32,000 nt of DNA, from positions 150,001 through 182,000 of the forward strand of contig CP064993.1 in NCBI GenBank assembly GCA_016699955.1. Reading direction: 5' to 3'. The notes beneath the pieces were generated by a model that was not told the DNA's origin, searched no databases, and saw only the letters and a list, made by a program, of their open reading frames with translations. This DNA comes from Candidatus Saccharimonadota bacterium (GTDB lineage Bacteria > Patescibacteriota > Saccharimonadia > Saccharimonadales > UBA4665). Shown here in pieces: positions 6,643 through 23,066 of this stretch. Made by a program: the position numbers and the translations under genes. Positions within the stretch are counted from its first letter, which is position 1. Each line of letters begins with the position of its first letter.

Positions 6643-6653
6643 TACGCAATTTT

Positions 6654-6676: not shown

Positions 6677-6803
6677 ATCTGTTAAAATCGGGTTTTAACA
6701 TCTCTAATTCCTAGCAAATGGAGACGAGACAGAAAAGCTAGAATGTAGGGCTATTAACAGAGAAGTCACTTGCAATATGGACAGGTTTTAACTCTTCAAT
6801 TTA

Positions 6804-6832
6804 TTGACATAAGTAATCATTAGTGCTATAAT
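6804..6832 (+). promoter_or_regulatory. Consensus sigma70-type promoter
   Basis: TTGACA (6804-6809), a 17-nt spacer and TATAAT (6827-6832). AGGAG lies 6 nt before the ATG at 6851. Confidence 0.55.
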
Positions 6833-6850
6833 TAAAAGATAGGAGATATT

Positions 6851-7207
6851 ATGACTTTAGATAAAGTTCACATTGTAGGTATGTCCGAAAATGGTAGCAC
6901 CTACTTAACTGTTGACGAATTTGAAGGTAAGGCAGTTAAGCCGCCCATTCAAGTAGTGCTTGAAGGTAAAGACGCTACTAGCGTTGCTGTTACCCAAGAC
7001 GCTCTCGCTGCTCGTTATGATGATGAAGAACTGTGTCAAATAGGTGAAGGTAGCTGGGTACTTGGACTCCAAAGAGTAATCGGCGAGATTGCTACTAATG
7101 GCAATCTAGAGTATGGCGCTACAAAGCCCTTGCATCCCAATCTCATTGATGCAGAAGTTGTAGCTTACGCAAAACTCCCTGCTTCCGTGTGTGAACTTAC
7201 GGCCTAG
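6851..7207 (+). CDS. Hypothetical protein (118 aa)
   Basis: ORF with a consensus promoter and Shine-Dalgarno sequence. No family was recognised. Confidence 0.6.
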   Translation: MTLDKVHIVGMSENGSTYLTVDEFEGKAVKPPIQVVLEGKDATSVAVTQDALAARYDDEELCQIGEGSWVLGLQRVIGEIATNGNLEYGATKPLHPNLIDAEVVAYAKLPASVCELTA

Positions 7208-7384
7208 TTGTTTAGTAATTTTCTAAGAAGTAACGTTTTACTTTCATAGCTAATAGCGCACCACTAAAATAACCGTATTCGTGGGTACGGATTGAACCAG
7301 AAGACAATAGCCCGAATGCTCAATGCTCACATGCGCATCTAGGGTCAGGGTTGTTGTATCAGCTAAAGAACGAGCAATTTTGAG

Positions 7385-7666
7385 CTACTTCCTAAAATCT
7401 AATAAATCCTCGGAGTCATTCCTTACTATTTTCTTTTTACGTGGGATCAACTTTGTGAAATAGGCGTAGGTTGATACTAGTACCTTCACGAATATTGCGA
7501 GTAGACAATAGATTGCAAGAAGGCCTAAGGCCGTGTTTGCGGTATCAATCCATGGTCCTTTAAAATTTTCTGTAATTATTGACCCGGCTAGGCCTATGGC
7601 AAAAACTGCAATAATCAAAACCCACCATGGAAGTAAGTTATACCAAGTAAGGCGATTATTTATCAT
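7385..7666 (-). CDS. Small membrane protein (93 aa, 2-3 TM helices)
   Basis: The hydrophobic segments LLPWWVLIIAVFAIGLAGSII and ALGLLAIYCLLAIFVKVLV are followed by a basic tail. The gene is divergent from the helicase gene. Confidence 0.5.
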   Translation of the reverse strand: MINNRLTWYNLLPWWVLIIAVFAIGLAGSIITENFKGPWIDTANTALGLLAIYCLLAIFVKVLVSTYAYFTKLIPRKKKIVRNDSEDLLDFRK

Positions 7667-7771
7667 GATAATATTATACCTCTCAATTATTCTTGTACAA
7701 TAATTCTTTTACTTAAGTCGTTGCGACGAAAGTTCTGATGTATAATTCGAGCAGAAACACCTTATCAATTT

Positions 7772-10700: not shown

Positions 10701-11635
10701 GCGAAGGCGGCGAAATAAACAAAGATATAGCTGCTGGACGAGTTAACGTGGCCTTTAGTCGTGCTCGGCTTCAGGTACACTGTGTAACCTCTCTTCCAAC
10801 AGAGCTGTGGCCTGACGGTATTTGGATTAAAAAGTATCTAGAGTATGTAGATAAAAATGGGGTACTATCCCGTCGACACAGTAAGTCTGAGCAACGTTTC
10901 GATTCTAATTTCGAAGAGCAGGTATTTAATTACCTATCTAGGGAATTGGGAGCAGATGAGTACACTGTGGAAACTCAAGCAGAATCTCTTGGCTTCAAGA
11001 TCGACCTAGTAGTTCATCATAAGGGCAAGAAGCTTGCAATTGAGTGTGATGGACCAACGCACTTCGAAGGCGGAGACGGTCAAGTTTATGTGCAGAACGA
11101 TTGGGAGCGTCAAGGTGCGTTAGAGGTCGCTGGATGGACCTTCTACCGCATATCATATTTCGACTGGGTTGATGACCAAGCAGAGGAAGAAAAGGCTCTA
11201 CTAGAGCATATAAAGCATTTCTTTGGCGAAGGACACTCTACAAGTAAGACGACTGTAGTTAAAGAACTTGAAAAAGAGACAGTCGCTCCTGAAGATGCTC
11301 CTAAAGACACTTACATAACAGACTTTTCTGATGAGCGTGTAGATAACGTAAGTCCAGTTAACGCTACACCAGCACCGACTGTTAATAAGGCTAAGACTTC
11401 AACCAAGAAAGAGTTTAGCGTTGGCGACCGAGGTGTTAATCAAGACGATTTTAGTAGGTATCTTCAGCCTCGTGCAAATGGGGTTATTAGAATGAGATAT
11501 CAAAGCGCTCGTGCTGGGAGTGCTGCTTACTGGCGTGATATCAAGTTGGTTAAATATGATGATACTTACCTATACGCTGAGGGCAACGACTACCCAATAA
11601 AATACCGTCGTGACCGTGTCATAGAGTTTAACTAG
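7772..11635 (+). CDS. SF1 (Upf1/Dna2-like, AAA_11/AAA_12) helicase with a DUF4011-like N-terminus, a DUF559/Vsr-like (MTES_1575-type) endonuclease domain and a WYL-like C-terminal domain
   Basis: Walker A is VEGPPGTGKSQT (nt about 8735-8758) and Walker B is YVIIDEASQC (about 10010-10040). Other helicase motifs are FFGDTLQM, LKYHYRS, IDGIQGDERDIVIYS and RVNVAFSRAR. The nuclease core is KIDLVVHHKGKKLAIECDGPTHF...GWTFYRISYFDW (about 10898-11170). The tail is IRMRYQSARAGSAAYWRDIKLVKYDDTYLYAEGNDYPIKYRRDRVIEF (about 11484-11632). Confidence 0.85.
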   Translation: MAKIPITISQLAKYGLDYVSLISSSASRSRPIKTEQMDAGLVSAPDLIFKGETDSLTISLVTSLDRQFDPNTLGEEKSDEQLQAERRVERDRAIFNRFQEIDTKIKTDEYTKRVVFQTGFISFEAKRLKENEFSDDYESYEAPLLQIPVAAINFKYTSDGANVIIDLPDSYLEVLTGPLKNYLPQQYFDNVFKFVADSEAEGKTSLPVEDDFIEDLWSAIRVQLDRVDAKAISESPGFDTSIVAITNKTNHFLAEDLRAIATLEDEDLLETSLGSWVSDEDMAIEQTVSDDGSTEIFFPFDYDKYQLKVLGITANKAVIVEGPPGTGKSQTISNLLVHLAATGKRVLFASQKDQAIRGVKDKLKTLDVPFLFGYIPDKTSKLYTADDEKDSAANTLIALNREFQKGKVGDLKEPLGLLVDRSKNFVENMNIERSLYALHEERRSLGYLDAFYDYGINLEFYGQCLEFEKNISELSSKIKQFEEAHSKFIKIADTKFKDLKIDYQGTIPSTESICTYFKVNMPERSGWLGGKVNDIKLRSALKEHCRDIFQEIYVEFEKILFSDNTKSAKLNMLDGVKAYFTYSLDKETLSYVCSELDKLLESKDMPETVLASFKKVVSEHGGDSEVFKDLDRYNAISAQIEEASLYSANELNREIKDIRKFYRKNVTNYVRNRILTRVGEANNSKELRATLAQVARSLTKSKKANKTFDRLKHNEDNFSAMSKVVPIWMMSLDDVSRIVPLEMNAFDYVIIDEASQCNFAYAFPAMYRAEHTIFFGDTLQMRDDNIMFKSNDQLSAIAKKHKIPDVYQIKAEEDTVKSVMDIASLNGFKTTTLKYHYRSPKELIGFSNTAFYEPIGRKLEAVNDNVVPYKDTGRVLLNHLVTPSDDEEIGSKTNLAEIRRIQELVEEIKIDPVIKDKSIAILTFFNEQAEEIRNVIKDEDIKVAIIDGIQGDERDIVIYSFVIKDPSDKRRYVSRTGEGGEINKDIAAGRVNVAFSRARLQVHCVTSLPTELWPDGIWIKKYLEYVDKNGVLSRRHSKSEQRFDSNFEEQVFNYLSRELGADEYTVETQAESLGFKIDLVVHHKGKKLAIECDGPTHFEGGDGQVYVQNDWERQGALEVAGWTFYRISYFDWVDDQAEEEKALLEHIKHFFGEGHSTSKTTVVKELEKETVAPEDAPKDTYITDFSDERVDNVSPVNATPAPTVNKAKTSTKKEFSVGDRGVNQDDFSRYLQPRANGVIRMRYQSARAGSAAYWRDIKLVKYDDTYLYAEGNDYPIKYRRDRVIEFN

Positions 11636-11644
11636 AATTTTACG

Positions 11645-12721
11645 TTAACTCTCTTGCAATTCTCTCAGTCTAGTAATCACGTAAAGCGATATTTCAATTG
11701 TCATATTTTTGGCAATTCGAGCATCTTCACGTCTAGATTTAATTCTGTGCGTACCATCATTGGACAGAAAGTGTCGATGAGACATGAGTAAGTCGGCCAT
11801 ATCCGTAGACAGAAGTCTTTTTTCTTTAAAGAACTTTGCTGCCTTCTCTGCATCCTTGCCGTCAATTTTTGTTGCTGGGTCTATAGACTTAGCAACTTGT
11901 TCGTAAAATCTTTCAGTGAAAGCACGTATTGCAGACATACAGTCTCTGTACTTCATAGGTGTATTAGCTTGCTCCACTAAATCAGATATGTGTCGCAAGG
12001 ATTCGCTCAGGTCCAAAGGAAAGCCAATACTTTCGATTTGTTCGACAACTCGTGCCTCGTCGGCATTCAACTCTGGGTTAAAGGCGGTGTCAATCTGACG
12101 AGCAAAATCACGAGTTAGCATTTCGTTAGTAGTAATGTAGAGCCTTCTTAAGGCCTTAGTAACATCTGTGTACAGACTACTGTATTCGTCAGCATCTTGA
12201 CCTAACTTAGACCTGCTTTGCATATAGTCGTCTGCGTAGTCCAGTAACCTTTCCGTGATATCAGAACCAAAAATATCTGGACGATGTCTTAGTGCCTGAA
12301 TAATGCAAAGGATGCTTTTTACGCAGGCACCATTATTGTTATATCCCACAAGGGTTTTGCATATATGGTCTAAGAGAATACCTGTGTTGCCCGTGTGCAC
12401 AAAATACAATGTAACAGCGTCAACTATACCGTCCGAGCCATTATTTTCTATGTACGACAGTAATAGTTGCTCAAATTCTTTTAACTCTCTGGCTGAAAGC
12501 TGCTGGGAAAGTTTTATTAACAATCCAGAGTGTTGATTGTTGAGCTGCCAGTCCTCTGGATTGTCGTCAATAAGACCTTTTATAGTACTGTCATCCAGTG
12601 GATAGCGTCCAGCATCTTCGGTAAGTGTATAGTTACTGACTTTGTTATCGCTGGCCTTTATGGCAGCGTTAGTCAGCAGCAGCTTAATCTTTTTTTTCAG
12701 TTTGTCGTCCATTGTTAACAT
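11645..12721 (-). CDS. Hypothetical protein with a DUF4145/HEPN-like C-terminal helical domain
   Basis: The preferred start is the ATG at 12721 (MLTMDDKLKKK); the TTG at 12784 is unlikely. The C-terminus AIRAFTERFYEQVAK...FFKEKRLLSTDMADLLMSHRHFLSNDGTHRIKSRREDARIAKNMTIEISLYVITRL resembles the DUF4145/Abi_C pattern (L-x-R-x2-(G)N-x3-H ... A ... helix). This is a weak, motif-level call only. Confidence 0.55.
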   Translation of the reverse strand: MLTMDDKLKKKIKLLLTNAAIKASDNKVSNYTLTEDAGRYPLDDSTIKGLIDDNPEDWQLNNQHSGLLIKLSQQLSARELKEFEQLLLSYIENNGSDGIVDAVTLYFVHTGNTGILLDHICKTLVGYNNNGACVKSILCIIQALRHRPDIFGSDITERLLDYADDYMQSRSKLGQDADEYSSLYTDVTKALRRLYITTNEMLTRDFARQIDTAFNPELNADEARVVEQIESIGFPLDLSESLRHISDLVEQANTPMKYRDCMSAIRAFTERFYEQVAKSIDPATKIDGKDAEKAAKFFKEKRLLSTDMADLLMSHRHFLSNDGTHRIKSRREDARIAKNMTIEISLYVITRLRELQES

Positions 12722-13117
12722 CTTAGCACTTGCGTGTATGTAAAAGAACTGATTGTGTTTATTGTCAAACAATATCCCCAACAAGCCTCTCCCAACAATC
12801 CTACCACTGTTAGTCGTTGGTCATTGTTGGGCTATTCTCAAAACATAGCTTTTTTATTTGTTGAGACATTTTTAGGTAGTTAGTGCGTTTACAACTACTC
12901 CTAGAAGTCTATGAGCTACGGGTACGGGGGTATATCAAGGCGTGTAAGTCTAGCTCGGCACAACCATACTCTTGTATTGGTTGTACGGTACGGCAAGTAT
13001 ATCTCTCCATCTTTGTATCTCTAACCTCAGTTGTGTGTAGTTATCCAAGCTAATTTGGTGTAAAAGTTTTTGGTCCTGCTGCACCATAGAAAATGTCGTT
13101 ACCACGTCTATACAAAA

Positions 13118-13146
13118 TTGACATAAGTTGTCGTAAGGTATATAAT
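13118..13146 (+). promoter_or_regulatory. Consensus sigma70-type promoter driving an apparently leaderless mRNA
   Basis: TTGACA (13118-13123), a 17-nt spacer and TATAAT (13141-13146). The ATG at 13154 is only 7 nt after the -10 box. Confidence 0.5.
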
Positions 13147-13153
13147 AATACTT

Positions 13154-13699
13154 ATGGCTGATACTTTTAGTGAAAGAATCGAAGCGTTACGTATTCAAAA
13201 GCGAGACGATTCGCGTGCACGCGCCCAAAAGCAAGTAAGTGCAGCAGCTATACAACTAGCAGAAAATGCACGTGTTGCTGAAGAGTCCAAGAAACTTATT
13301 GCAGACCTGCTAACTTTCCTAACGGCACGTGATGTGCCTACCGCACGCTTCGTTAGAACTGATTCAGAGCAAGTAATACTACATAGTAGAAATATTCTAA
13401 AACCATGGAACCCCCCCACATATGGTACGCGTGCGACTGAAAGAGATGTTGCGCGGGGGTGGTATATCTCAGACGTAGACGGCGAGCCAGGCGAGTGGGA
13501 TGTATCGTATCATCCATCCACACCCTATGGGCTTGATACCTTCGGACGCTTATATAGACTCAATGGAATTGCACCTGATAGATACATAGGTGATAAATAT
13601 GCAGTTATGGAAGAAATACTAGATCCTGAAATGCAAGTTCGAATTTTAAATGGCGAAGCAACTATAAACCGTTTAGAGGAACTCAGTAGAGGCAATTAA
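13154..13699 (+). CDS. Hypothetical protein (181 aa)
   Basis: ORF directly behind a consensus promoter. No family was recognised. Confidence 0.6.
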   Translation: MADTFSERIEALRIQKRDDSRARAQKQVSAAAIQLAENARVAEESKKLIADLLTFLTARDVPTARFVRTDSEQVILHSRNILKPWNPPTYGTRATERDVARGWYISDVDGEPGEWDVSYHPSTPYGLDTFGRLYRLNGIAPDRYIGDKYAVMEEILDPEMQVRILNGEATINRLEELSRGN

Positions 13700-13753
13700 A
13701 AACTGGCCACATAGCTAAAGAATCATCACCAAGGGTGGAAAACTCTACGTAAT

Positions 13754-13867
13754 CTACGCAGTTAGGTCGCCTGATAAATTAAATATCTCAACAAGATTAT
13801 TTAGCTTTTGGTCATCAACTTTCTGTGTTGCGGATGTTTGTAATACGTCAACTATGGTGCACCAATT
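13754..13867 (-). repeat. Conserved junction module, copy C: minus-strand coding-like remnant ending at a GCACCA core
   Basis: The minus frame reads NWCTIVDVLQTSATQKVDDQKLNNLVEIFNLSGDLTA*. It is homologous to 14747-14863. The GCACCA core is at 13859-13864. Confidence 0.6.
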
Positions 13868-13907
13868 AGACCCAAACGATTTTGAAACAGTATAGTTTCT
13901 AACATTT

Positions 13908-13929
13908 GAGCCTTTTGAAGGCTCTTTTT
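13908..13929 (+). terminator. Intrinsic terminator-like hairpin
   Basis: GAGCC-TTTTGAA-GGCTC followed by TTTTT. Confidence 0.45.
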
Positions 13930-13943
13930 GTTATGATTGGTTT

Positions 13944-14750
13944 ATGAAAAACGCTTCAAGCGGCGACATCCTTAGCTATAACCAATATGCAGAGATTGAG
14001 AAACAAGGCTTTACTACACCTTATATTGTAGAATTACAGCGTGAGGGTCAAAATCTGCTTTTCTATGGCTCAGAGCATACGAATAATCCTGAGCACCCTC
14101 AGTTCCAAGATGTTGAAGAGCGATGGAAAGCATTTGTCGCAAATTCAGAAAAACCAATCGCACTTGTTGAGGGTCGTTTTGATGAAGTGTCTCAAGATGA
14201 GTCAAAAGATAGGACAAAATCTATTGTGGAAGGCGGCGAGGCACAGTTCGTAGTCCATCTTGCCCGTAAAGACGGAGTGGAAGTAGCTTCGCCAGAACCT
14301 GATAGAATCTGGGAAGCAAACGAACTTGCAAAAGAGTTTGGTAGAGACAATGTTGTTTTCTACTACTTTGTAAGACAAGTTGGCTGGTGGAATAGGTTTA
14401 CCGAAAAACCGGATGTTCAGGCAGAAGCAAACAAAATGCTTGGGCTAATGGAAAAAACCTACAATTGGCATGACGTTGATTTTAGCATTGAGCGAATGGC
14501 TGCTATCCACGAGGAGCTATTCGGTAAGCCATTGTCGTGGGATGATACGCAATGGGTCTATGAGATAACGACACCAACACCTCAAGATTATGTTACAAAC
14601 GAGTTAGCTCGCAGGTCAGGCGAGCTTAGAGACGAGTATATACTTGAGCAGATTATGAAATACTGGAAAGAGAGTAAAAGCTTGTTTATAGTCTTTGGTT
14701 CAGCACACGCTATAAGGCTTGAACCTGCACTTCGTAATCTAGCCGCCTAG
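13944..14750 (+). CDS. Tiki/ChaN/TraB-GumN superfamily-like protein
   Basis: The N-terminal NLLFYGSEHTNNPEHPQFQ...IALVEGRF and the C-terminal FIVFGSAHAIRLEP resemble the paired G-x-x-H motifs of this superfamily. This is a motif-level call. Confidence 0.5.
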   Translation: MKNASSGDILSYNQYAEIEKQGFTTPYIVELQREGQNLLFYGSEHTNNPEHPQFQDVEERWKAFVANSEKPIALVEGRFDEVSQDESKDRTKSIVEGGEAQFVVHLARKDGVEVASPEPDRIWEANELAKEFGRDNVVFYYFVRQVGWWNRFTEKPDVQAEANKMLGLMEKTYNWHDVDFSIERMAAIHEELFGKPLSWDDTQWVYEITTPTPQDYVTNELARRSGELRDEYILEQIMKYWKESKSLFIVFGSAHAIRLEPALRNLAA

Positions 14751-14863
14751 CTATCTAACAAACCGCCCGACAAGTTAAATACTTCAACTAGGTGCTTCAG
14801 CTTATAATCATTCACGACATCGATGGCTGATGTTTGAAATGCGTCAACTATCCTGCACCAAAT
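14747..14863 (-). repeat. Conserved junction module, copy B
   Basis: The minus frame reads IWCRIVDAFQTSAIDVVNDYKLKHLVEVFNLSGGLLDS*. The two peptides are clearly alignable, with shared blocks IVD, QTSA, KL and LVE-FNLSG. The DNA copies also align throughout with scattered substitutions. Confidence 0.6.
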
Positions 14864-14899
14864 GAGGACTTTCGGACACTTCGGTGTCCTTTTTCTTTG
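14855..14899 (+). repeat. 45-nt exact repeat: GCACCA core plus flank plus terminator (copy 1)
   Basis: gcaccaaatgaggactttcggacacttcggtgtcctttttctttg is identical to 16714-16758. It contains GGACAC-TTCG-GTGTCC followed by TTTTT. Confidence 0.9.
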
Positions 14900-15147
14900 G
14901 CGTTAATCCGTAAAGTTAGCTCTTAAGAAATACAAACTTTCCCCTAACTTATTGTACGAAGCAACGAGGCTAGTTTATCCAGGCGTAGCGCTTGGTTACA
15001 TGCCCGAACAAATCATTTAATGACTAGTAGAACTATAAATAACCCACCCAAGAGGCTGCTTGGTAAAAGCATAAACATATTTAAATTGTCAAAAAGCAAG
15101 TGCTATAATGTAGTGACATAACCGCTGGGCGGAAACGAGGAGGGTAC

Positions 15148-16449
15148 ATGTTCAAACGACTAGTAACTTTAAGCGGAGCGGCAGTGTCAGTAGCGGCACT
15201 GTTCGTAGCTTCGGCCGGCGCTATGCCGACTAACACGACGAAGATTATTACGGCGAATGATCTGGATAACACATCATCAAATCCGGCTGTTGTAGCGACA
15301 GACGGCTTGAACAAGTGGTTCATGTATAACGATACTACTGATACGATCGACAATACGCTTGGTAGTTTCGTGTATGGGCCTGCAACGCCGCCTCACGGAA
15401 ACGGTAGCGTAGCATTCACTCTCGGGGCAAGCCCGCTGGATCGTAAGAATATCGCTACCTACCAATTTGGCGGACAAGCATTGTCAACGCTCACGAAGTT
15501 GTCTTACACCGCCTACTCTCACAGTGGTGTTGCTGGCACTAACGAATCGCCATACCTGAATTTCAACGTTGATTTCACCGGCACTAGTACTACGTGGCAG
15601 AAGCGATTGGTTTATGTACCAAGCGCCAACATGGTTTCCGTGCCGCAAGACACTTGGAATACCTATGACGCTATTAGTAGTGGTAACGCATTATGGAACT
15701 GGTCGGGTTTTGCCGCTAATGGCAATAAATGGCCTGACGGCAATATAAACCAAAATCGAACCTGGAGCGACATTTTGACGGCATTTCCGAGCGCCCGAGT
15801 CTTACCTGGTGACTCCTGGCTTGGCGTTCGCGTGGGTGAACCTGGTCCTACGGGCTACACCGGCAACGTCGACTCATTCACGCTCGGCACTGCCAATAAA
15901 GTGACAACCTATGATTTCGAACCTACTAACTTACCTAACAATGAAAAAGACTGCCGTAATAATGGATGGAAAGCCTTCAACGCGCCAACATTCAGCAGCA
16001 AGAAAGCTTGTGAAAACTGGGTTGACGCTGCTGCTCACGGCAACATACGTATGAGTGGCCCCAGCCAGAAAATAAAGTTTAATGTCGCGAACACAAAAGA
16101 CAATGATCGTGATCACCATGATCGTGATGAACGCGGCCGTAAGAACACCGTAGAGTACTGGAACTTCGATTACCCGGGCGGCCTGCACTACAAGGCTGCG
16201 ATCACGTGCCAGAATGTCAACCCGTTGACTAACGATGCACGTTTCATGTTCCAGATCCCTGCTGGCCACCCAGGCCTCAGTGACCTGTATATAGTGGTCT
16301 ATGTCAAGGATGGCGGTAAGCACCAGCCTGCTCAGTATGGGCACGCTGCAACAGCTGACAAAAATACAGCTCAGCAGTGGTGTGAAACCGGCGTTGGCTT
16401 TGCGCCAGCCATGTACACGGTTACCAAGGGCCACGTAGAAGTAAACTAG
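15148..16449 (+). CDS. Secreted hypothetical protein (433 aa)
   Basis: GAGGAGG lies 5 nt upstream of the ATG. The N-terminal signal-like segment is MFKRLVTLSGAAVSVAALFVASAGA. No family was recognised. Confidence 0.7.
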   Translation: MFKRLVTLSGAAVSVAALFVASAGAMPTNTTKIITANDLDNTSSNPAVVATDGLNKWFMYNDTTDTIDNTLGSFVYGPATPPHGNGSVAFTLGASPLDRKNIATYQFGGQALSTLTKLSYTAYSHSGVAGTNESPYLNFNVDFTGTSTTWQKRLVYVPSANMVSVPQDTWNTYDAISSGNALWNWSGFAANGNKWPDGNINQNRTWSDILTAFPSARVLPGDSWLGVRVGEPGPTGYTGNVDSFTLGTANKVTTYDFEPTNLPNNEKDCRNNGWKAFNAPTFSSKKACENWVDAAAHGNIRMSGPSQKIKFNVANTKDNDRDHHDRDERGRKNTVEYWNFDYPGGLHYKAAITCQNVNPLTNDARFMFQIPAGHPGLSDLYIVVYVKDGGKHQPAQYGHAATADKNTAQQWCETGVGFAPAMYTVTKGHVEVN

Positions 16450-16549
16450 CACAAAACGTTCTAGATTGGCCGAAGATGGTGACTTCATTAAACGGAGTCA
16501 CCATTTTCATTGTGAGAGTCGTTGTGTTTTTGTGCTCCATGAAAAGAGT

Positions 16550-16578
16550 CTTGCCCGATTGGGCAGGGCTTTATTCTT
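16550..16578 (+). terminator. Terminator-like hairpin after the 15148 gene
   Basis: CTTGCCC-GATT-GGGCAGG (one G.U pair) followed by the T-rich GCTTTATTCTT. Confidence 0.4.
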
Positions 16579-16719
16579 GGTGCAGGGCTAGTAGGGACTC
16601 TAACGGCTTTGCCAGTGGCAAAGCCCGACCCGAAGCCGGTCGACCTTGGGAGACCGGTTGTCGTGACAGCGCATGAGCATCTGCGCTCGTCGACAAGGAG
16701 AGTCCCCCCACCCGCACCA
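16579..16719 (+). ncRNA. Unclassified GC-rich structured RNA-like element with a tRNA-Gly-like 3' terminus
   Basis: Closing helices are GGTGC(A)GGG/CCCGCACC and GGGACTCT (16594-16601)/AGAGTCCC (16699-16706). Internal hairpins are GGCTTTGCC-AGT-GGCAAAGCC, CCGGTC-N10-GACCGG and AGCGCA-N8-TGCGCT. It is visibly more GC-rich than its surroundings and is followed by a strong terminator at 16733-16753. No Rfam family was recognised. Confidence 0.35.
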
Positions 16720-16758
16720 AATGAGGACTTTCGGACACTTCGGTGTCCTTTTTCTTTG
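16714..16758 (+). repeat. 45-nt exact repeat: core plus flank plus terminator (copy 2)
   Basis: Identical to 14855-14899. Confidence 0.9.
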
Positions 16759-16812
16759 CCATGCGAAGTCATATCTCATCACTTCTTTTAATATCTGCCA
16801 CTGGTTTTCTTT

Positions 16813-17241
16813 ATGACAAATAATAATTCTCTTCAGGACCTTCTCGCGACACTGGATGATATCACATTAAAAGATAGCAAAATACTTCTTGAGATAATGC
16901 AGCGTATAAGCGCTGCCGAACCTAAAATATGGAATGAACATACTATAGGTTTTGGTACATATCACTACAAATACGACAGCGGGCGCGAAGGCGACAGTCA
17001 AATTCTTAGTTTTTACCCAAGAAAGGGTAGGATTACCGTTTACCTGATGGACGGTACGGCACGCTATTCCGTGCTACTGGATAAGCTGGGCGGTCACAGT
17101 CCTACTGGTTACTGCATCGTGATTAAACGACTTAGTGATATAGAATTACCTGTACTTGAGGAGATTTTGCAGCAGTCTTATGAGTACATCAAGTCAATGT
17201 CACAGAAGGGACCTATCAACAGAATATTATGGAAAAATTAA
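16813..17241 (+). CDS. DUF1801 (YdhG-like) domain protein
   Basis: KIWNEHTIGFGTYHYKYDSGREGDSQILSFYPRKGRITVYL is typical of DUF1801. Confidence 0.7.
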   Translation: MTNNNSLQDLLATLDDITLKDSKILLEIMQRISAAEPKIWNEHTIGFGTYHYKYDSGREGDSQILSFYPRKGRITVYLMDGTARYSVLLDKLGGHSPTGYCIVIKRLSDIELPVLEEILQQSYEYIKSMSQKGPINRILWKN

Positions 17242-17263
17242 AAATGAACATCGTGGAAGGTAA

Positions 17264-17428
17264 TTAGTAAATAATCTTTTCACAATTCTCCATTCCATTT
17301 TGGATCAGGACACCCATATTGGGCGCCGATAAACGACCGCCCTCAGTCAGCCATTCAAAAAGTTTAAGTAAATTCTCTGTAAAGGTGCGCCAAACAGGGA
17401 TAGCGGGACGCTTATTTGCCCTGTTATT
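17264..17428 (-). pseudogene. Start-less remnant resembling the C-terminal part of a class I methyltransferase
   Basis: The minus frame between stops reads NRANKRPAIPVWRTFTENLLKLFEWLTEGGRLSAPNMGVLIQNGMENCEKIIY*. A related remnant lies at 18193-18300. Confidence 0.3.
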
Positions 17429-17483
17429 TTATTATTAGCAGTGATTCAATATATAATGTGAAAATAACTAAGGAGTATCCGCT

Positions 17484-18125
17484 ATGGCAACAAAAAAAGA
17501 TAAGTATCCGGCCACTTTTGATATAGATTATCCGAAAAAACTTGACCGTCTGAGTACTTTTTTTCGTATCGTATGGAGTATCCCTGCGATAATCATCATT
17601 AGCATGCTGACAGCATCTGGTAGCGAGCGGCTCATGAACGAAGCGGGCCAGGAAGTTTCTACGGGCGGTGGTGGCATTGCGGCTGGACTGTTTTGTGCTA
17701 CTGCCCTGATGATTCTTTTCCGCCAGCGTTATCCACGATGGTGGTTTGATTTTGCGCTCGAACTAAACAGATATTCATCTAGAGTCGGTGCTTACATTCT
17801 CCTGCTAACTGATCGTTACCCTTCCACCGTTGAAAAGCAATCAGTCCAGTTGGACATAGAGTACCCAAATGTTGAGCGAGATCTTAATCGTTGGTTGCCA
17901 TTGGTAAAGTGGTTGCTAGCTATACCTCATTATTTTGTATTGTTCATTCTTGTAATTGCTGCCTCAGTAGCGACTGTCATTGGCTGGTTTAGCATACTCT
18001 TTACCGGTCAATACCCCAGGAGTTTATTTAACTTTGTGGTTGGGGTGGGCAGATGGGGTGTTCGAGTCACTGCTTATGCGTTTTTGCTAACAACCGATGA
18101 ATATCCACCGTTTAGGCTTCGATAA
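17484..18125 (+). CDS. DUF4389 domain membrane protein
   Basis: Duplicated modules ...LSTFFRIVWSIPAIIII...RYPRWWFDFALELNRYSSRVGAYILLLTDRYPS and ...LLAIPHYFVLFIL...GQYPRSLFNFVVGVGRWGVRVTAYAFLLTTDEYPPF. AAGGAG lies 8 nt upstream of the ATG. Confidence 0.8.
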   Translation: MATKKDKYPATFDIDYPKKLDRLSTFFRIVWSIPAIIIISMLTASGSERLMNEAGQEVSTGGGGIAAGLFCATALMILFRQRYPRWWFDFALELNRYSSRVGAYILLLTDRYPSTVEKQSVQLDIEYPNVERDLNRWLPLVKWLLAIPHYFVLFILVIAASVATVIGWFSILFTGQYPRSLFNFVVGVGRWGVRVTAYAFLLTTDEYPPFRLR

Positions 18126-18192
18126 CATCCGCTGAACCAGTAGATTGTCTGATAACCCAAAGATTTGATCAATATGTTGTAACTTCTTATAG

Positions 18193-18300
18193 CTATGTTC
18201 TATGTCGTCGATTATATCTAGGGGGTGACAGTAGGCTAAAAAGCCGACCACTCACCAGACATTCAAAAAGTTTATAACTCTGCACCAATAGGACTGTCAG
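18193..18300 (-). pseudogene. Second start-less methyltransferase-like remnant
   Basis: The minus frame reads LTVLLVQSYKLFECLVSGGRLFSLLSPP.... It shares KLFE-x-L-x2-GGRL with 17264-17428, and the DNA core cattcaaaaagttta is identical. Confidence 0.3.
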
Positions 18301-18426
18301 TTATTAAGCCTATTTTTGGGAAGAATTTTACAGACAAAAACCTGGGCAAAGGATAGAGTATAAAGAGCTTCAGGTGTTAAACCTATTAAGAGCACGTAAC
18401 TTTAACGAAAAAAAGGGGTAAATGAA

Positions 18427-18807
18427 ATGGCTAAATACATTGATGGATTTGTACTTGTAATACCTAAAGGCAAAGAAGCCGAATACCAGAAAATGGCAGA
18501 AGAAGGGCGTGATTCATGGATGAAGCATGGTGCACTTCAGTACTTTGAGTGCAGAGGCGAAGATCTTAAGCAGCAGGAAATGGGTGACCTAAAATCACGA
18601 GCTTTTCAGGAGATGGCTGGCGCTAACGGGGATGATAATGTCTGGTTTTCATTCATTGTTTTCGAATCAAAAGAGCACCGCGACGAAGTAAACAAAAAAG
18701 TTATGGACGAAATGAGCGAATTGTATAAGGATAAAACTGATTTTGAAATGCCGAACGATATGAAAAAAATGGCATACGGCGGATTTGAAGTGGTAGTTGA
18801 AGGTTAA
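18427..18807 (+). CDS. DUF1428 (YbaA-like) protein
   Basis: MAKYIDGFVLVIPKGKEAEYQKMAE...WFSFIVFESKEHRDEVNKKVM...MAYGGFEVVV is collinear with E. coli YbaA-type proteins. Confidence 0.8.
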   Translation: MAKYIDGFVLVIPKGKEAEYQKMAEEGRDSWMKHGALQYFECRGEDLKQQEMGDLKSRAFQEMAGANGDDNVWFSFIVFESKEHRDEVNKKVMDEMSELYKDKTDFEMPNDMKKMAYGGFEVVVEG

Positions 18808-18976
18808 AGGGCTTTTTTATTAGTCTGACTCTAGAGTCTTACCGCTGTCCAAAAGCAAAGGTAAAAATTGCCGGTGGCAGTTAGTTATCCACATTTCGTT
18901 AAGTGATGGTATATACTAGACAGGCGGTATAATAAAACAAGTTACGCATTAACAATCAATTTAAGAGGAGGCCGAC

Positions 18977-19168
18977 ATGGTTACAGGATACTGCGTTAAA
19001 TGTAAGGAAAAAGGCGTTGAATTGTCAGCACCAGAGATTGTCAAAACTAAAACAGGTGGTTTCATGGCCAAGGGCAAGCATGAAAAATGCGGAACTACAG
19101 TTTGCGCAATGATGTCTAAGGAAAATGCCGAAAAAGCAGTAGAAGCCGGCGCAAAAAAAGCCTACTAG
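18977..19168 (+). CDS. Small zinc-ribbon protein, DUF5679-like
   Basis: GYCVKCKEKGVEL...KGKHEKCGTTVC has paired CxxC-like motifs. AGAGGAGG lies 6 nt upstream of the ATG. Confidence 0.6.
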   Translation: MVTGYCVKCKEKGVELSAPEIVKTKTGGFMAKGKHEKCGTTVCAMMSKENAEKAVEAGAKKAY

Positions 19169-19207
19169 ACCTCAAGGCACGAAAATCTAATCAGTAACCG
19201 TATGCTG

Positions 19208-19247
19208 CCACACTATGAAAAACCAGTCCTTGTGGCTGGTTTTTTCA
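19208..19247 (+). repeat. Junction/terminator repeat (copy 1) related to the flank of the tRNA-derived minihelix
   Basis: ccacactatgaaaaaccagtccttgtggctggttttttca compared with 22981-23018 caccatgaaaagtccactccttgtggctggttttttca. It contains AACCAG-N9-CTGGTT followed by TTTTT. Confidence 0.75.
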
Positions 19248-19386
19248 CGGTCTATCTTGAACCCCTAGCTCCTGGCCGAATAAAATATTTATCACCAGGA
19301 GTAGCTCTTGCCCACATGGCTGGTCATTATTACAGTTACTCTGACCGACACCGTCCTTGCTGTCCGTTTTTGATATAGTTAAGTTT

Positions 19387-20025
19387 ATGAAAGAAACTCT
19401 AGGCATACTAGCCGTTATCGTTGGCTTCATCGGATATATCCCTTATTTCCGCACAATTTTTAGTGGAAAGACTAAGCCTCATGCATTCAGTTGGCTGGTG
19501 TGGGGGACTCTAACGGGTATTGCGTTTGTTAGCCAAGTTGCTGGCAATGGTGGGGCTGGGGCCTGGGTAACTGGCTTCACCGCGCTGATTAGCTTTACAA
19601 TATTTGGCCTTGCTCTGTTTAAGGGTGTTAAAGATTTTCCTCTTACTGACTGGCTGTGCCTCGCCGGAAGTATAATTGCTATTGCGTTGTGGGCACTCAC
19701 TAAGAATCCATTGATAGCAGTCGTGTTGATCACGATAATTGATTTCGTGGCATTCCTTCCTACAATTCGTAAGTCCTATTCTGAGCCGAACTCTGAACCT
19801 ATATTCACCTACTCGCTGAGCGGCCTCAAGTTCTTGATTGGGATCATAGCGCTCACTGAGCTGTCATGGCTAACAGTGTTATATCCCGCCTCATTAGTTA
19901 TGGCTAACGGAGGATTTGTGGTGATGTTGCTTATACGAAGAAATAAACTGGCTCAGGAGCAGTCATCTCTTGCGTTGAGTCCCCTCACCCGCTCCAAAGT
20001 GACACAACAGAGGACACATCGCTAA
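19387..20025 (+). CDS. Polytopic membrane protein (about 6 TM) whose 3' end runs into a tRNA-Gly 3'-end repeat
   Basis: The preferred start is the ATG at 19387 (MKETLGILAVIVGF...). The last codons ...SLALSPLTRSKVTQQRTHR* are encoded by the 19977-19996 repeat and its flank. Confidence 0.55.
   Translation: MKETLGILAVIVGFIGYIPYFRTIFSGKTKPHAFSWLVWGTLTGIAFVSQVAGNGGAGAWVTGFTALISFTIFGLALFKGVKDFPLTDWLCLAGSIIAIALWALTKNPLIAVVLITIIDFVAFLPTIRKSYSEPNSEPIFTYSLSGLKFLIGIIALTELSWLTVLYPASLVMANGGFVVMLLIRRNKLAQEQSSLALSPLTRSKVTQQRTHR
19977..19996 (+). repeat. Copy of the tRNA-Gly 3' end (19 of 20 nt)
   Basis: gagtcccctcacccgcTcca compared with tRNA 6212-6231 gagtcccctcacccgcAcca. Confidence 0.85.
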
Positions 20026-20076
20026 GGCGTGGCGTTTTTGACATAACCTTATAATTTCATCTGTTATTATACATTC

Positions 20077-20799
20077 ATGAAAGATAAAATTATCGTAATT
20101 ACTGGTGCAAGCGAAGGCCTGGGCAAAGCTGCTGCGGCTAAACTAGCCCAAGAGGGTGCAAAATTAGTTTTAGTTGCACGCAACGAGGAAAAGCTTAAGC
20201 AAGTGAGTGAACAGATGGGCGAAAATACTCGATATTACGTGTGTGATGTGGGTGTCCCCGCCCAAGTTAGGGAAGTAGCAAGCAAGATATTAGACGAGTA
20301 CGAGTCAATAGATATCCTTATTAACTGTGCTGGTATATGGACAGACGAAGAGCTGGAGAAGAACGATGCTGATCGACGCAAGAGAGTTCTCGAAGTAAAC
20401 ACACTCGGAACAATTGAGTTCATAAAAGCCTTTGAGCCATCACTAAGAGCCAACAACAAAGGCCATGTCTTGAATGTGATATCTACCTCAGGAAACTTTG
20501 ATACAAGCTCTGGCGACAATACGTTGTGGCAAACTTACGGCGCAAGTAAATGGGCACTGTCTGGGTTTACTCGCGCATTTAAAGATTCTCTTGAGGGAAC
20601 CAGGGTTAAAGTTACCGGCTTCTACCCTGGTGGCTTTGATAGTAACTTGTATGAAAATGCGAATGTTCCAGACGCACACAACCAACCGTGGATGATGAAA
20701 ACTGATGATGTGGCAGACGCGCTGATATTTTGTCTGACTCGACCAGACGATATGCTCGTTGAAAAGCTCATTGTTACGAAGTTCGGTGCCGATAGTTAG
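20077..20799 (+). CDS. Short-chain dehydrogenase/reductase (SDR) family oxidoreductase
   Basis: Carries VITGASEGLGKA (TGxxxGxG), NCAG and YGASKWAL (YxxxK). Confidence 0.85.
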   Translation: MKDKIIVITGASEGLGKAAAAKLAQEGAKLVLVARNEEKLKQVSEQMGENTRYYVCDVGVPAQVREVASKILDEYESIDILINCAGIWTDEELEKNDADRRKRVLEVNTLGTIEFIKAFEPSLRANNKGHVLNVISTSGNFDTSSGDNTLWQTYGASKWALSGFTRAFKDSLEGTRVKVTGFYPGGFDSNLYENANVPDAHNQPWMMKTDDVADALIFCLTRPDDMLVEKLIVTKFGADS

Positions 20800-20835
20800 A
20801 TACAAGTACGTTTTAACCTCTGTTATGATATAGGT

Positions 20836-21771
20836 ATGAAAATAGTTCTTCCTGACAAAATCAATATCTCTAGTGATTACAAAAATATGATTAGAGAACT
20901 GGGAGCAGAGGTCTTTGAGGACTTACCTGATAACAACGAGCTTAAGAAGCGAATTGCTGATGCTGAAATTATCACAGCTAGTTATGTAGATATTACACCT
21001 GATGTAATTGACGCTGCACCAAATCTCAGATATATTGTTGTGCCTGCTGTTGGGTTTGAATGGGTTGATACTAAATACGCTGCGTCTAAGGGTATAACAA
21101 CGCTTAATTGCCCAACTTTTAATAGTCAGGCTGTTGCCGAACACGCAATGACATTACTCATGGCTGCAAATCGCAATCTGATAGTAGGCATAGACGAGCT
21201 ACGAGCTGGCAAGTGGAGTCCCCAAACTTTGATTGGCTACGAACTTGATAGCAAAAAACTAGGTTTGATTGGCTACGGAAATGTCGGTACAAGAATAGAA
21301 AAAATCTCAATTGGACTCGGTATGAGCGTCAGTTATACAAACTCAAAATCAACATCTGACGAGGTAGATGAACTGCTTAGTAGCTCTGACTTTATTATTA
21401 TCTGCGCCCCGTTAAATGACGGCACAAGAAACTTAGTTGATGACCGCCGATTAAAGCTTCTGAAACAAACTGCAATACTAGTCAATGTTGGACGTGGTGC
21501 AGTTATTGACCAAAATGCACTAATTGAACTACTAAAAAATAAAATGATACGAGGTGCGGGGCTAGATGTATTTGACGGCGAGCCGCTAACAGGGGTACCT
21601 AGCGATGAGATAGTTGAGCTGGCAAGGCTACCGAATGTCGTAACTACCCCACATATTGCCTATAACACAGAAGAAATTAACGACAAACAAGGTGCAGAAA
21701 TACTGTTAAACCTGCAATCGTGCATAGCTGGTGAGCCAGTCAATGTTGTTATGCAGGGCAGTGCAAAGTGA
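20836..21771 (+). CDS. D-isomer-specific 2-hydroxyacid dehydrogenase family protein (NAD-binding)
   Basis: Carries LGLIGYGNVGTRI (GxGxxG), VNVGRGAVID and TPHIAYNT. Confidence 0.85.
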   Translation: MKIVLPDKINISSDYKNMIRELGAEVFEDLPDNNELKKRIADAEIITASYVDITPDVIDAAPNLRYIVVPAVGFEWVDTKYAASKGITTLNCPTFNSQAVAEHAMTLLMAANRNLIVGIDELRAGKWSPQTLIGYELDSKKLGLIGYGNVGTRIEKISIGLGMSVSYTNSKSTSDEVDELLSSSDFIIICAPLNDGTRNLVDDRRLKLLKQTAILVNVGRGAVIDQNALIELLKNKMIRGAGLDVFDGEPLTGVPSDEIVELARLPNVVTTPHIAYNTEEINDKQGAEILLNLQSCIAGEPVNVVMQGSAK

Positions 21772-21783
21772 GTGGAATGAATA

Positions 21784-22686
21784 ATGGCTAATAAGAGGCC
21801 CCTTTCAGCACCAGTCGGCGCAAGCCTCATTGTTTTGTCGTCGTTTTTCTATGCCAGTTACGGTATTTGGACAAAGCTAATGGGCGACTTCTTTCAAGGC
21901 TACACAGCTTCGGCTCTGCGAAGTGTGTTGGTACTTCTTATCCTATTACCTATTGCCCTTTTCTATCGGCACTTACAGCCACTAAAGCTAAAGCAAAATT
22001 GGCGGTACATAGCTGGAATGCTCATTGCTTCATTGTTTACTTGGGGACCGTTATACTACGCAATCTTACATGCAGGAGTCGGTATAAGTCTGGCTATTGT
22101 GTATGCAAGCATTGTTATTGGTTCATTCTTTTTTGGCTGGCTATTTGGTCGGGAACGGTTTACGAAAGATAAAGCTATATCTGCTGGATTAGGCGTAATT
22201 GGACTGGGGCTAATCTTTTCCCCAAGCACAGGCAGTTTAGGCTGGCTAGCACTACTAGGAGCTTTGGTTAGCGGTCTATCTGCTGGTGCAAACGCTGTTT
22301 TTTCTAAGCAGATACGGTACAACGCTACTCAATCAACTATTGTTCTATGGGTTACGTCAGTAATAGCAAACTTTGTTATGGCTTTTGCGCTTCAAGAACA
22401 TTATCCAGAAGTTGGCTGGTATGCTCCCTGGCTGTGGCTTGTTTTCTTTGCAGTTGCTTCGGTTATTGCGTCTTGGTCACTTGTAAAGGGAGTAAAGCTC
22501 ATAGATGCTGGCGCAGCAGGTGTTTTAGGATTATTAGAAATTGTGTTTGGCGTAATCTTCGGAGTTATATTCTTTCACGAACGACCAGCAGCAATAGCAT
22601 TGCTTGGAATGGCTGTAATAATTGGTGCGGCTTCCATACCGTACTTTAAAGACTATAACGCTAAGCGTGGGACATTAGATGAGTAA
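21784..22686 (+). CDS. EamA/DMT-family transporter
   Basis: About ten hydrophobic helices arranged as two EamA-like halves, in a 300-aa protein. Confidence 0.75.
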   Translation: MANKRPLSAPVGASLIVLSSFFYASYGIWTKLMGDFFQGYTASALRSVLVLLILLPIALFYRHLQPLKLKQNWRYIAGMLIASLFTWGPLYYAILHAGVGISLAIVYASIVIGSFFFGWLFGRERFTKDKAISAGLGVIGLGLIFSPSTGSLGWLALLGALVSGLSAGANAVFSKQIRYNATQSTIVLWVTSVIANFVMAFALQEHYPEVGWYAPWLWLVFFAVASVIASWSLVKGVKLIDAGAAGVLGLLEIVFGVIFGVIFFHERPAAIALLGMAVIIGAASIPYFKDYNAKRGTLDE

Positions 22687-22950
22687 AGTTCAGAAGGAAG
22701 AAACGGTTAGTCCAAAAGTGCAAACACCTGAAACTGAAACAGGGAGAGGTATTGTTGAGCCAGGTAGGCAATTTGTAGCAGACTTTTATAATCAATTGGC
22801 AGAGGCAACGAGTCCGTATGTCGAGGGTGCAAGTTAGCATAGTCTATATTACCTAAGCAGGAACACAAGTGCTTATTTGTACTGTACAATTTTACAATTT
22901 CTAAGGGGTAACGTTTTACTTTCGTAGCTGGAGTTACTAAATTGGCGACA

Positions 22951-22985
22951 GCGGGGTAAGAGTAGGGTTCTCCTAACCCGCACCA
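22951..22985 (+). other. tRNA-Gly-derived 35-nt acceptor/T-arm minihelix with encoded CCA (internally deleted pseudo-tRNA or displaced att remnant)
   Basis: GCGGGGT AAGAG TAGGGTT CTCCT AACCCGC A CCA, i.e. a 7-bp acceptor-like stem (one mismatch), a 5-bp T-like stem (one mismatch) and a 7-nt loop. It is followed by a hairpin and T-run at 22990-23016. Confidence 0.5.
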
Positions 22986-23066
22986 TGAAAAGTCCACTCC
23001 TTGTGGCTGGTTTTTTCATATACATGCCCATATTCTAGAATGAAAGTGTCGCAGAGACTGGGGCTT

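Follow-up and report, generated by a model that had tools for sequence, protein, structure and literature searches.

A family of covarying, tRNA-linked structured elements in Saccharibacteria

Introduction

Saccharibacteria (TM7), which belong to the candidate phyla radiation (CPR), have tiny genomes with few recognisable mobile elements and with hypervariable islands. Here we analyse a stretch of 32,000 nucleotides (nt) from a Candidatus Saccharimonadota bacterium (GenBank assembly GCA_016699955.1, contig CP064993.1, positions 150,001 to 182,000 of the forward strand), hereafter the window, whose own numbering is used throughout; other loci are designated by L numbers. A GC-rich, multi-hairpin element at 16579-16720, ending in the 3' sequence of tRNA-Gly, had been singled out there from the letters of the DNA alone (the sequence-only reading). 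We find that this element is one of 36 members of a family, detected in Saccharibacteria genomes and metagenomes, that folds into a four-way junction and carries two arms matched to the adjacent tRNA gene. Literature searches returned nothing describing the element, and the family is specific to Saccharibacteria and previously undescribed.

Architecture of the element

All features are on the plus strand unless stated otherwise. The element is closed by pairing between a 5' arm (X', 16577-16604, TTGGTGCAGGGCTAGTAGGGACTCTAAC) and a 3' arm (X, 16699-16720), both supplied by the tail of the tRNA-Gly(GCC) gene at 6155-6231 (detected by ARAGORN and Rfam). X is a copy of tRNA-Gly positions 56-76, identical at 20 of 21 positions, with the sole mismatch at 16708. 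X' is an inverted and diverged copy of the same tail, mirroring the stretch GTTAGAGTCCC...CCCTGCACCAA (also written GTTAGAGTCCC...CCCGCACCA), so that the closing helix is in effect an inverted repeat of tRNA sequence. Within X', TTGGTGC(A)GGG contributes to helix P0, in which GGTGC(A)GGG (16579-16587) pairs with CCCGCACC (16711-16718); GGGACTCT (16594-16601) forms the 5' strand of helix P1 and pairs with AGAGTCCC (16699-16706); and the terminal AAC (16602-16604) is the complement of tRNA G53-T54-T55. X provides the 3' strands of P1 and P0 and is at the same time one core of the cassette array described below.

The interior begins with P2 (16605-16625), a perfect 9-bp hairpin with an AGT triloop and the hallmark GCCRGTGGC, which is followed by the junction strand CGACCCGAA (16626-16634; family consensus CCgnCCC(GAA/TT)GC), whose unpaired columns are conserved. 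P3 (16635-16658) has a 7-bp stem (16635-16641 with 16652-16658) and a conserved 10-nt loop, GACCNTGGGA, in which tandem G·A pairs, a C-G pair and a YNTG tetraloop probably form. P4, formed by TGTCG (16659-16663) and CGACA (16691-16695), encloses the variable hairpin P5 (16667-16689), which short members lack, and is followed by a conserved AAGG (16695-16698). The terminator scan placed one hairpin with a T-run in the spacer upstream of the element (S, 16545-16572, within 16534-16578) and an intrinsic terminator downstream, as the sequence-only reading had it (segment S2, 16721-16758; terminator 16733-16757, with the hairpin at 16733-16748 and a T-run). The spacer starts with GCTCCA (16534-16539), a degenerate, displaced tRNA-Gly tail that aligns with the locus L108.

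The helices and hairpins that the sequence-only reading had traced by eye are all present in the sequence, and the energy of the fold agrees with them: as RNA, 16579-16720 has a minimum free energy of -72.9 kcal/mol against -49.9 +/- 3.9 for 200 dinucleotide shuffles (z = -5.86). Folded as DNA, the same stretch gives z = -6.14, and the opposite strand folds about equally well. A 94-amino-acid (aa) open reading frame (ORF) on the minus strand spans the element (16488-16772); we judge it spurious, since its product is of low complexity and conservation is explained by covariation at the nucleotide level. It corresponds to the frame in which a recombinase of relatives, described below, reads through the tRNA.

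A second, 5'-truncated copy of 96 nt (6547-6642), 97% identical to the full one, lies 315 nt downstream of the live tRNA-Gly. It starts at the final two bases (CC) of P2; the 5' arm and the remainder of P2 are missing, and the junction strand, P3, P4/P5 and the 3' arm are retained. Its three differences from the full copy affect the P3 tetraloop (16646), a linker (16688) and the unpaired part of the 3' arm (16708), much as had been noted from the sequence. Separately, the T-stem of the window tRNA-Gly contains an A·C mismatch (AGGAG/CCCCT) where relatives have AGGGG, and AAGGAG is also found in the 3' region of the element; either a simple mutation or past gene conversion between the tRNA and the element could explain this.

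No known RNA family accounts for the element, in keeping with the sequence-only reading. Rfam at gathering threshold reported only the tRNA-Gly in the whole window; Rfam 15 at E <= 10 returned only noise for 16500-16800 (15 and 11.6 bits against gathering thresholds of 45.5 and 80); and a search of sixteen homologous loci found only tRNAs and one unrelated S-adenosylmethionine riboswitch. ARAGORN reported only tRNA-Cys and tRNA-Gly in the window and did not recognise the element as a tRNA; in its closing helix, tRNA positions 56-63 are paired with an unrelated 5' strand.

A conserved four-way junction

Comparative analysis of the homologues shows a conserved fold and not mere junction debris, and the covariation strongly supports the central idea of the sequence-only reading, a genuine structured element connected with tRNA-Gly and with integration. 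RNAalifold applied to six MAFFT-aligned members, a result free of inflation by model fitting, yielded 37 pairs, 18 of them with compensatory double changes. Across the 36 members, whose alignment was fitted to the model, which inflates the paired percentages, 95.1% of cells are paired, versus 72.6% in column shuffles and 34-47% when partners are slid by 1-3 columns. Double changes occur in 32 of the 37 pairs, and none of 500 shuffles reaches the observed values.

The fold of the family is a four-way junction closed by the X'/X pairing. In P2, which has an RGT triloop in the family, double compensatory changes affect 7 of 9 pairs and 96% of cells are paired; in P3, covariation affects 6 of 8 pairs, pairing reaches 99% of cells and the GACCNTGGGA loop is invariant save for one N. 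The G...T pair that closes P3 is invariant on the tRNA-sense strand. The sequence-only reading had offered two pairings in this region: the CGAC/GTCG flank of the second hairpin, which can be read in the window sequence but is not conserved among homologues, and the alternative TGTCG/CGACA pairing, which is the one that covaries (P4; CATCG/CGATG in L030 and TTGCT/AGCAA in L077). The inverted repeat of the arms measures 8-11 bp and has a T-loop-derived consensus, GGGAYTNNAAC / NNARTCCC, and the flanking repeats comprise 21-60 nt of target sequence, of variable extent.

Homologues and their tRNA neighbours

A pattern scan of genomes with the tRNA-Gly tail delivered 120 loci, nearly all from Saccharibacteria. 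With the element as query, nhmmer recovered the full-length relatives L044 (83% identity to the window), L030, L116, L066 and L077. The L044 element follows a tRNA-Gly, and the other four follow tRNA-Leu(TAA), where both arms consist of tRNA-Leu sequence (GGGACTTGAAC ... CAAGTCCCACCTCGCCCACCA) around a conserved interior. Further nhmmer and covariance-model searches and a metagenome scan with the interior motif brought the family to its 36 members; about 40 of the 67 metagenome pattern matches were due to chance, in GC-rich coding DNA or other RNAs.

Members are non-coding, measure about 110-145 nt and lie 28-60 nt downstream of nine tRNAs (Gly-GCC/CCC/TCC, Leu-TAA/CAA, Val-TAC, Ser-GGA, Ala-GGC and Gln-TTG), in fixed orientation and at fixed distance. 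In every homologue the 3' arm equals the last 21-22 nt of the adjacent tRNA, CCA included, and the 5' arm is complementary to the T-loop and T-stem of that tRNA; the 5'-arm consensus 'gggnntngAAC' is kept in the 36 members and shifts with the T-loop of the adjacent tRNA, and the middle of the arm is consistently non-complementary. In most loci a strong terminator hairpin separates the tRNA from the element, its stem often extended by pairing of the tRNA ACCA with the TGGT of the element, and a terminator usually follows the element as well. The canonical order is tRNA, terminator S, X', a core of three hairpins, and X. The L078 element is located between tRNA-Val and tRNA-Phe in a Val/Phe/Gly cluster, 15 nt before tRNA-Phe. 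As to the association with tRNA-Gly or a recombinase that the sequence-only reading had proposed to test, homologues lie behind nine tRNAs, Gly among them, and no recombinase recurs.

The exact P3-region pattern (GAAGCCGGTC-N10-GACCGGTTGTCG) had no match in the viral, genome and metagenome collections, which did not include the source genome; BLAST of the element against plasmids and phages found no match; and scans of viral contigs with the tRNA tail and the family motif gave nothing, or one chance match in coding sequence (L128). One 805-kb contig, seen in 8-kb chunks, holds at least two copies (L169, L180).

The architecture extends beyond the 36 members. Within L026 (1014-4400), each of four neighbouring tRNAs (Leu-CAG, Val-TAC, Phe-GAA and Gly-GCC) is followed by a structured element that ends in a copy of its own tail, and the interiors of these elements are mutually unrelated; thus, the architecture is common to a wider superfamily, which also includes Phe, Leu-CAG and Leu-GAG types. 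One subfamily, specific to Phe, is found again in L046, L059, L062 and L099. In L162 (1440-1590), a second element of a different subfamily (GGGATCCGAAC ... TATCCCTGTCTCGCCA) stands right after the first element and its terminator, so that elements can stack behind one tRNA-Ser, and the same tandem stacking is seen behind tRNA-Phe in L046. A conserved GC-rich structured region (GCCGGTGGCCCGGTGGTACGCCAGCCGCGCAGGCGACCTTGGGAGCCCGCG...) in L132, L134 and L157 is a chance motif match unrelated to the family and may represent another unclassified RNA; in L132, the one of the three run on Rfam, no match was found at this region.

Insertion polymorphism, direct repeats and a possible passive origin

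Presence is sporadic: an exact 14-nt duplicate of the tail was found within 260 nt for only 17 of the 268 tRNAs in the sampled loci. An insertion polymorphism is seen at tRNA-Leu: in L008 (empty site) a HIT-like gene follows after 37 nt, and in L104 (filled site) the tRNA is followed by S, the element and then a HIT-like gene orthologous to that of L008. In L066 and L135, the tail together with the whole terminator is directly repeated (60 and 59 nt, respectively) around a core of about 95-100 nt. The junction to the tRNA-derived arm shifts by 1-2 nt (AAGG|C, AAGG|TC, AAGG|TT). Cargo of defence or toxin type accompanies several arrays: two elements flank AbiTii cargo in L171 and Fic/helix-turn-helix cargo in L170, and the array of the window includes helicase-nuclease cargo. 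The spacer and interior can also be of different affinity: the interior of the window element is like that of L044, where S differs, and its S is like that of L108, where the interior differs.

Some of these features are what one would expect of a passive by-product, in which template switching at the terminator palindrome makes an inverted copy of the tail with no dedicated machinery. The duplicated tail and the conserved tRNA body would then act as homology handles by which linked DNA spreads among competent Saccharibacteria through homologous or homology-facilitated recombination, and the hairpins would be selfish or neutral. Saccharibacteria are indeed naturally competent; across the terminator, the tRNA ACCA and an A-tract pair with a T-tract and TGGT, which makes tail-S-X' a long imperfect palindrome; the direct repeats vary in extent (21, 48, 59 and 60 nt) and have variable junctions; and S and interior assort independently, as just described for L044 and L108. 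Neutral palindromes, however, would not keep AAC, the AGT loop, GACCNTGGGA, AAGG and five covarying helices, as 36 diverged copies at nine tRNAs do, and a fresh fold-back copy would not show the non-complementary middle of the 5' arm. We consider a passive origin improbable and tentatively prefer to regard the element as a miniature non-coding insertion or attachment element that targets tRNA genes, the mode of action of which is taken up after the surrounding array.

The cassette array of the window

The region 6232-22986 is a cassette or island array, a string of small cassettes punctuated by tRNA-tail cores. Plus-strand cores end at 6231, 6642, 13086, 13864, 14860, 16539 (degenerate), 16719, 18287, 19996 and 22985, and a terminator comes next at most of them. 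The motif YGCACCAWW occurs 12 times against 2.7 expected, and the 21-nt tRNA tail is repeated at 6211-6231, 6622-6642 and 16699-16719. A 48-nt direct repeat (14852-14899 and 16711-16758), consisting of CCYGCACCA and a terminator, encloses a secreted-protein gene and the element. The array encodes a helicase with an MTES_1575 nuclease domain, DUF1801, DUF4389 and DUF1428 proteins, a short-chain dehydrogenase/reductase (SDR), a 2-hydroxyacid dehydrogenase, an EamA transporter and several ORFs without a family. Pfam detected no recombinase in the array, nor any tyrosine recombinase among the scanned ORFs from 394 to 31784, and NCBIfam and PHROGS detected none in the ORFs of 6.2-25 kb that lacked a Pfam match. 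A remnant of the large serine recombinase of relatives was rejected, the sole match in the window being the tRNA-overlapping tail.

The 433-aa ORF just upstream of the element (15148-16449) has a signal peptide and no Pfam match, and a hypothetical protein from a metagenome-assembled genome of Candidatus Saccharibacteria shares 100% identity with it; the signal peptide and its secreted 'choice-of-anchor'-like homologues rule it out as an RNA-guided recombinase or TnpB. On the other side, the DUF1801 ORF (16813-17241) starts 93 nt downstream of the element, and this proximity to a highly structured stretch had led the sequence-only reading to suggest a riboswitch-like leader, or attenuator, of that gene. 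The two are separated, however, by an intrinsic terminator and a distinct promoter-like site, and homologues precede unrelated genes or tRNAs (the HIT-like gene in L104, tRNA-Phe in L078) with no recurrent family and no Rfam riboswitch match, which leaves a leader function hardly any probability.

Two further repeats were noticed in the window. A tail copy matching tRNA-Gly at 19 of 21 positions (TGAGTCCCCTCACCCGCTCCA; 19976-19996) lies inside the 3' end of a 222-aa ORF (19357-20025), a homologue of which is found 1.5 kb downstream of the element in L144. Nearer the start of the window, a 130-nt direct repeat, 98% identical, occupies 1080-1209 and 2972-3101; the first copy comprises a promoter-like TTGACA...TATAAT and the first ~23 codons of a DUF4922 gene (1142-2161), and the second is a truncated duplicate 1.9 kb downstream.

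History of the locus and neighbouring islands

The segment 16536-16606 of the window aligns with the tRNA-Gly tail, spacer terminator and 5' arm of L108, which indicates that a tRNA-Gly once stood directly before the element, as it does in L002, L044 and L108; only GCTCCA remains of it. In L002 a homologue of the secreted protein is directly followed by tRNA-Gly. The islands next to tRNA-Gly in L059 and L127 end in a short GCACCA core, after which come a spacer terminator and an element of a sister subfamily. Because the island cores in L059, L127 and the window lie upstream of S and the element, the element predates the islands and is not an island arm. Islands thus insert at the tail of the tRNA, and an S-plus-element unit already present there is shifted downstream. 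The ancestral order in the window would have been secreted-protein gene, tRNA-Gly, S and element; later cassette insertions at the tRNA tail would have displaced S and the element 10 kb from the working tRNA, and the truncated second copy would have arisen beside the tRNA.

This order bears directly on a classical explanation, in which the element is an integrase attachment (att) arm at the right end of a 10-kb island (6643-16720) and the hairpins are incidental or serve as integrase or excisionase sites. Cargo of foreign appearance, ~10 kb long, does lie between a full and a partial copy, relatives have a large serine recombinase right next to tRNA-Gly, and arrays of partial tRNAs are typical of repeated integrations, for instance of tycheposons (10.1101/2020.12.28.424599). 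Yet most copies stand directly behind an intact tRNA with neither island nor integrase, the islands of L059, L127 and the window end upstream of S and the element, and double-stranded protein-binding arms would lack free compensatory covariation. We therefore regard an att arm as very unlikely, and the proposal of an element-borne att-arm RNA in the sequence-only reading is not supported, on the same evidence of island-free copies and islands placed upstream. Its related proposal, a small RNA gene used as an integration target, fares better as to the target, the 3' tail copy being a core of the cassette array; the RNA gene itself is doubtful.

The islands carry recurrent end modules of their own. 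A left-end module after the tRNA-tail core (AGACCCAAACGATTTTGAAACAGTATAGTTTCTAAC / (A/T)TTAGACCCAAACGATTTTGAAACAGTATAGTTTCTAAC and a terminator) occurs in islands of different Saccharibacteria (window 13865-13935; L127 1300-1370; L059 1703-1772 and 5957-6006); it contains AGTTTCTAAC, which resembles the T-loop-complementary arm of the element. An AT-rich module of about 95 nt that ends in TGCACCA (window 13770-13864 and 14768-14860; L007 12579-12672, minus strand; L059 ~5706-5810) probably forms the right end of small cassettes or islands of one family that target tRNA-Gly. On the minus strand it has an open-frame tail (WCxIVDAFQTSA...KLKHLVEVFNLSGxL*) with protein-like conservation, and it could alternatively be a C-terminus split off from a gene that, in the circular form, runs across the attachment site. 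In L002 (11437-13030; also in L001 and L004), a minus-strand gene for a large serine recombinase of 524 aa overlaps tRNA-Gly by 58 nt, and its final 18 codons are the reverse complement of the tRNA. Integration may have split this gene, or the 3' half of the tRNA may come from the island.

RNA or folded DNA

A functional non-coding RNA, produced by read-through from the strong tRNA promoter or within tRNA operons, has to be weighed seriously. Its four-way junction would serve as a scaffold for protein binding or catalysis; the pairing partner of the 5' arm would be the T-loop region of the cognate tRNA or pre-tRNA, or of its gene, and the 3' arm would mimic the tRNA tail. Conceivable roles are those of a guide in the style of bridge RNA or omega-RNA, a tRNA-like 't-element' that directs processing, or a decoy or regulator in the metabolism of tRNA 3' ends. 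The strong covariation with conserved loops and junctions, the P3-closing G...T pair that is invariant on the tRNA-sense strand, the fixed orientation and distance to the tRNA, the terminator usually found downstream and the combination of a scaffold with a target-identical 3' segment, known from TnpB omega-RNAs, all fit such an RNA. So does the L078 element, which, being inside a tRNA cluster, is transcribed there.

Several observations point the other way. No plus-strand promoter-like site was found between tRNA and element in the four loci searched (the window, L044, L066 and L129), and canonical strong terminators lie directly upstream of the element, separating it from the tRNA in most loci. 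RNA families normally show a clear excess of G·U pairs; outside the one invariant G/T column pair, the helices of the family contain 20 G·T and 20 A·C combinations, which are small counts. Moreover, the sporadic presence, the truncated copies and the arrays away from tRNAs are unlike a housekeeping RNA, no effector gene recurs, and the putative guide is sequestered by the 5' arm. An RNA function consequently appears to us somewhat unlikely. The lack of a promoter, the upstream terminators and the absence of a G·U excess, together with the strong fold as DNA, lead us to lean, not strongly, to a role at the DNA level, exerted by a folded single strand.

Our tentative preference is, then, for a miniature insertion or attachment element that is non-coding, targets tRNA genes and functions as single-stranded DNA in a folded form. 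Insertion behind a tRNA would duplicate the tRNA tail, or sometimes the tail and terminator, and re-targeting to other tRNAs would be possible because X' reads the near-universal T-loop sequence. The folded strand would rebuild a duplex of the T-loop segment copies and, in the Gly members, of the GCACCA end as well, and a recombinase or nuclease encoded elsewhere would recognise the fold. The extra copy of the tRNA tail would offer a further attachment core, by which the element could feed a tycheposon-like cassette array. Family membership, the fold, the matching of the arms, the position, the insertion polymorphism, the direct repeats and the arrays are observed; the action at the DNA level, the mechanism of mobility and the enzyme acting in trans are what we infer.

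Certain points weigh against this preference. No circular or excised form was seen, and no neighbouring protein family, including a recombinase or transposase partner, recurs in the 37 element loci. L008 and L104 are the only empty/filled pair and are distant from each other, the collections holding one genome per species. From a precise site-specific recombinase one would expect a tidier junction than one that varies by 1-2 nt. Functional RNAs have conserved loops and junction strands just as typically, and transcription of the L078 element, 15 nt from tRNA-Phe, is of the same tendency; to these come the model-fitted alignment behind the paired percentages and the low numbers in the comparison of G·U with A·C.

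A more ambitious proposal, which we consider unlikely though with a real chance of being right, is that the family constitutes the nucleic-acid part of a programmable, base-pairing-directed insertion system of CPR bacteria that targets tRNA genes. With the 5' arm as its guide, such a system would read the near-universal sequence of the tRNA T-loop; the four-way junction would recruit an enzyme encoded elsewhere, and each insertion would copy the tRNA tail and thereby create new landing sites for defence or niche cassettes. It would amount to an integron-like platform for gene capture, anchored on tRNA genes and specified by base pairing, not solely by the recognition of DNA by protein.

Comparison with known systems

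The design of the family, a conserved folded core with both arms re-matched to the preceding tRNA, is unusual, and several known systems share parts of it. The element has the terminator of an independent small RNA gene, but no promoter-like site upstream of it was found in the four loci, and another terminator immediately precedes it. TnpB omega-RNAs and IS110 bridge RNAs likewise join a structured scaffold, about 100-150 nt long, to a segment derived from the target: the 3' segment of omega-RNA, ~16-20 nt, equals the flanking DNA, and that of the element is the 21-nt tRNA tail. Unlike these RNAs, the element has no adjacent TnpB, IscB or IS110 (by Pfam in the window, and likewise in the other loci), no promoter and no G·U signature of selection at the RNA level, and its would-be guide is paired to the 5' arm. 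Plant mitochondrial t-elements and mascRNA resemble it in their cloverleaf-like four-helix shape near or within tRNA units and in a 3' end that equals a tRNA acceptor tail, whereas the element is recognised neither by ARAGORN nor by the Rfam tRNA model, pairs in a non-tRNA register and has its CCA paired. Were the element nonetheless to act as RNA, it would define a new, widespread class of structured RNA with a built-in segment that reads tRNA.

Miniature inverted-repeat transposable elements and repetitive extragenic palindromic (REP) doublets forming hairpins (MITEs and REPINs, such as Correia elements and the REP doublets mobilised by RAYT) are likewise non-coding, hairpin-forming, intergenic and sporadic units of ~100-150 nt that presumably depend on an enzyme encoded elsewhere. 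They differ in that the target of the element is strictly the 3' flank of a tRNA, its terminal repeats copy the target and change with it, its direct repeats span 21-60 nt in place of target-site duplications of 2-10 bp, and its fold is multi-branched with conserved loops; moreover, the copies in L026 have unrelated interiors.

With classical tRNA-island att sites the element shares the direct repeat of the tRNA 3' end, but an adjacent integrase is absent and the element is usually free of an island. The window between 6.2 and 23 kb is an array of the kind formed at tRNA genes by Prochlorococcus tycheposons and by Streptococcus cis-mobilisable elements (CIMEs), with which it has in common successive insertions at the tail, partial tRNA copies, defence or niche cargo and degenerate units without an integrase. 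Those systems are defined by tyrosine recombinases and plain att repeats, and for their arrays we found no description of a structured, covarying module with a T-loop-complementary arm. The family provides a searchable marker of the tRNA-linked plasticity zones of Saccharibacteria and bears on how these organisms acquire genes. As DNA or as RNA, it warrants a covariance model in Rfam and in the annotation of mobile elements, and cultivable, transformable Saccharibacteria now offer an experimental handle.

Under our preferred reading, the element is comparable in principle to the attC sites of integrons and the attP(+) hairpin of CTX phage. These too are ~60-150 nt in length, with covarying structure and drifting sequence, and in them, as in the element, two arms pair to rebuild a duplex recombination site around an unpaired stretch; the topology ...AAC [interior] G(T)T... 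is common to the attC R''/R' boxes and the arms of the element. Like attC sites, elements punctuate arrays of single-gene cassettes in one orientation (the window, L171 and L170). The differences are nevertheless considerable: the element has no R'' (RYYYAAC)/R' (GTTRRRY) and L''/L' boxes, its arms being derived from the tRNA tail, and neither an integron integrase nor an attI accompanies it; it is usually an 'empty' unit behind a tRNA, for which action at the DNA level is our inference; and its interior is a conserved three-hairpin junction with conserved loops in place of a variable terminal structure. If the element does serve as an attachment site in the form of folded DNA, it would extend the principle of integrons and CTX phage to tRNA genes and to CPR bacteria.

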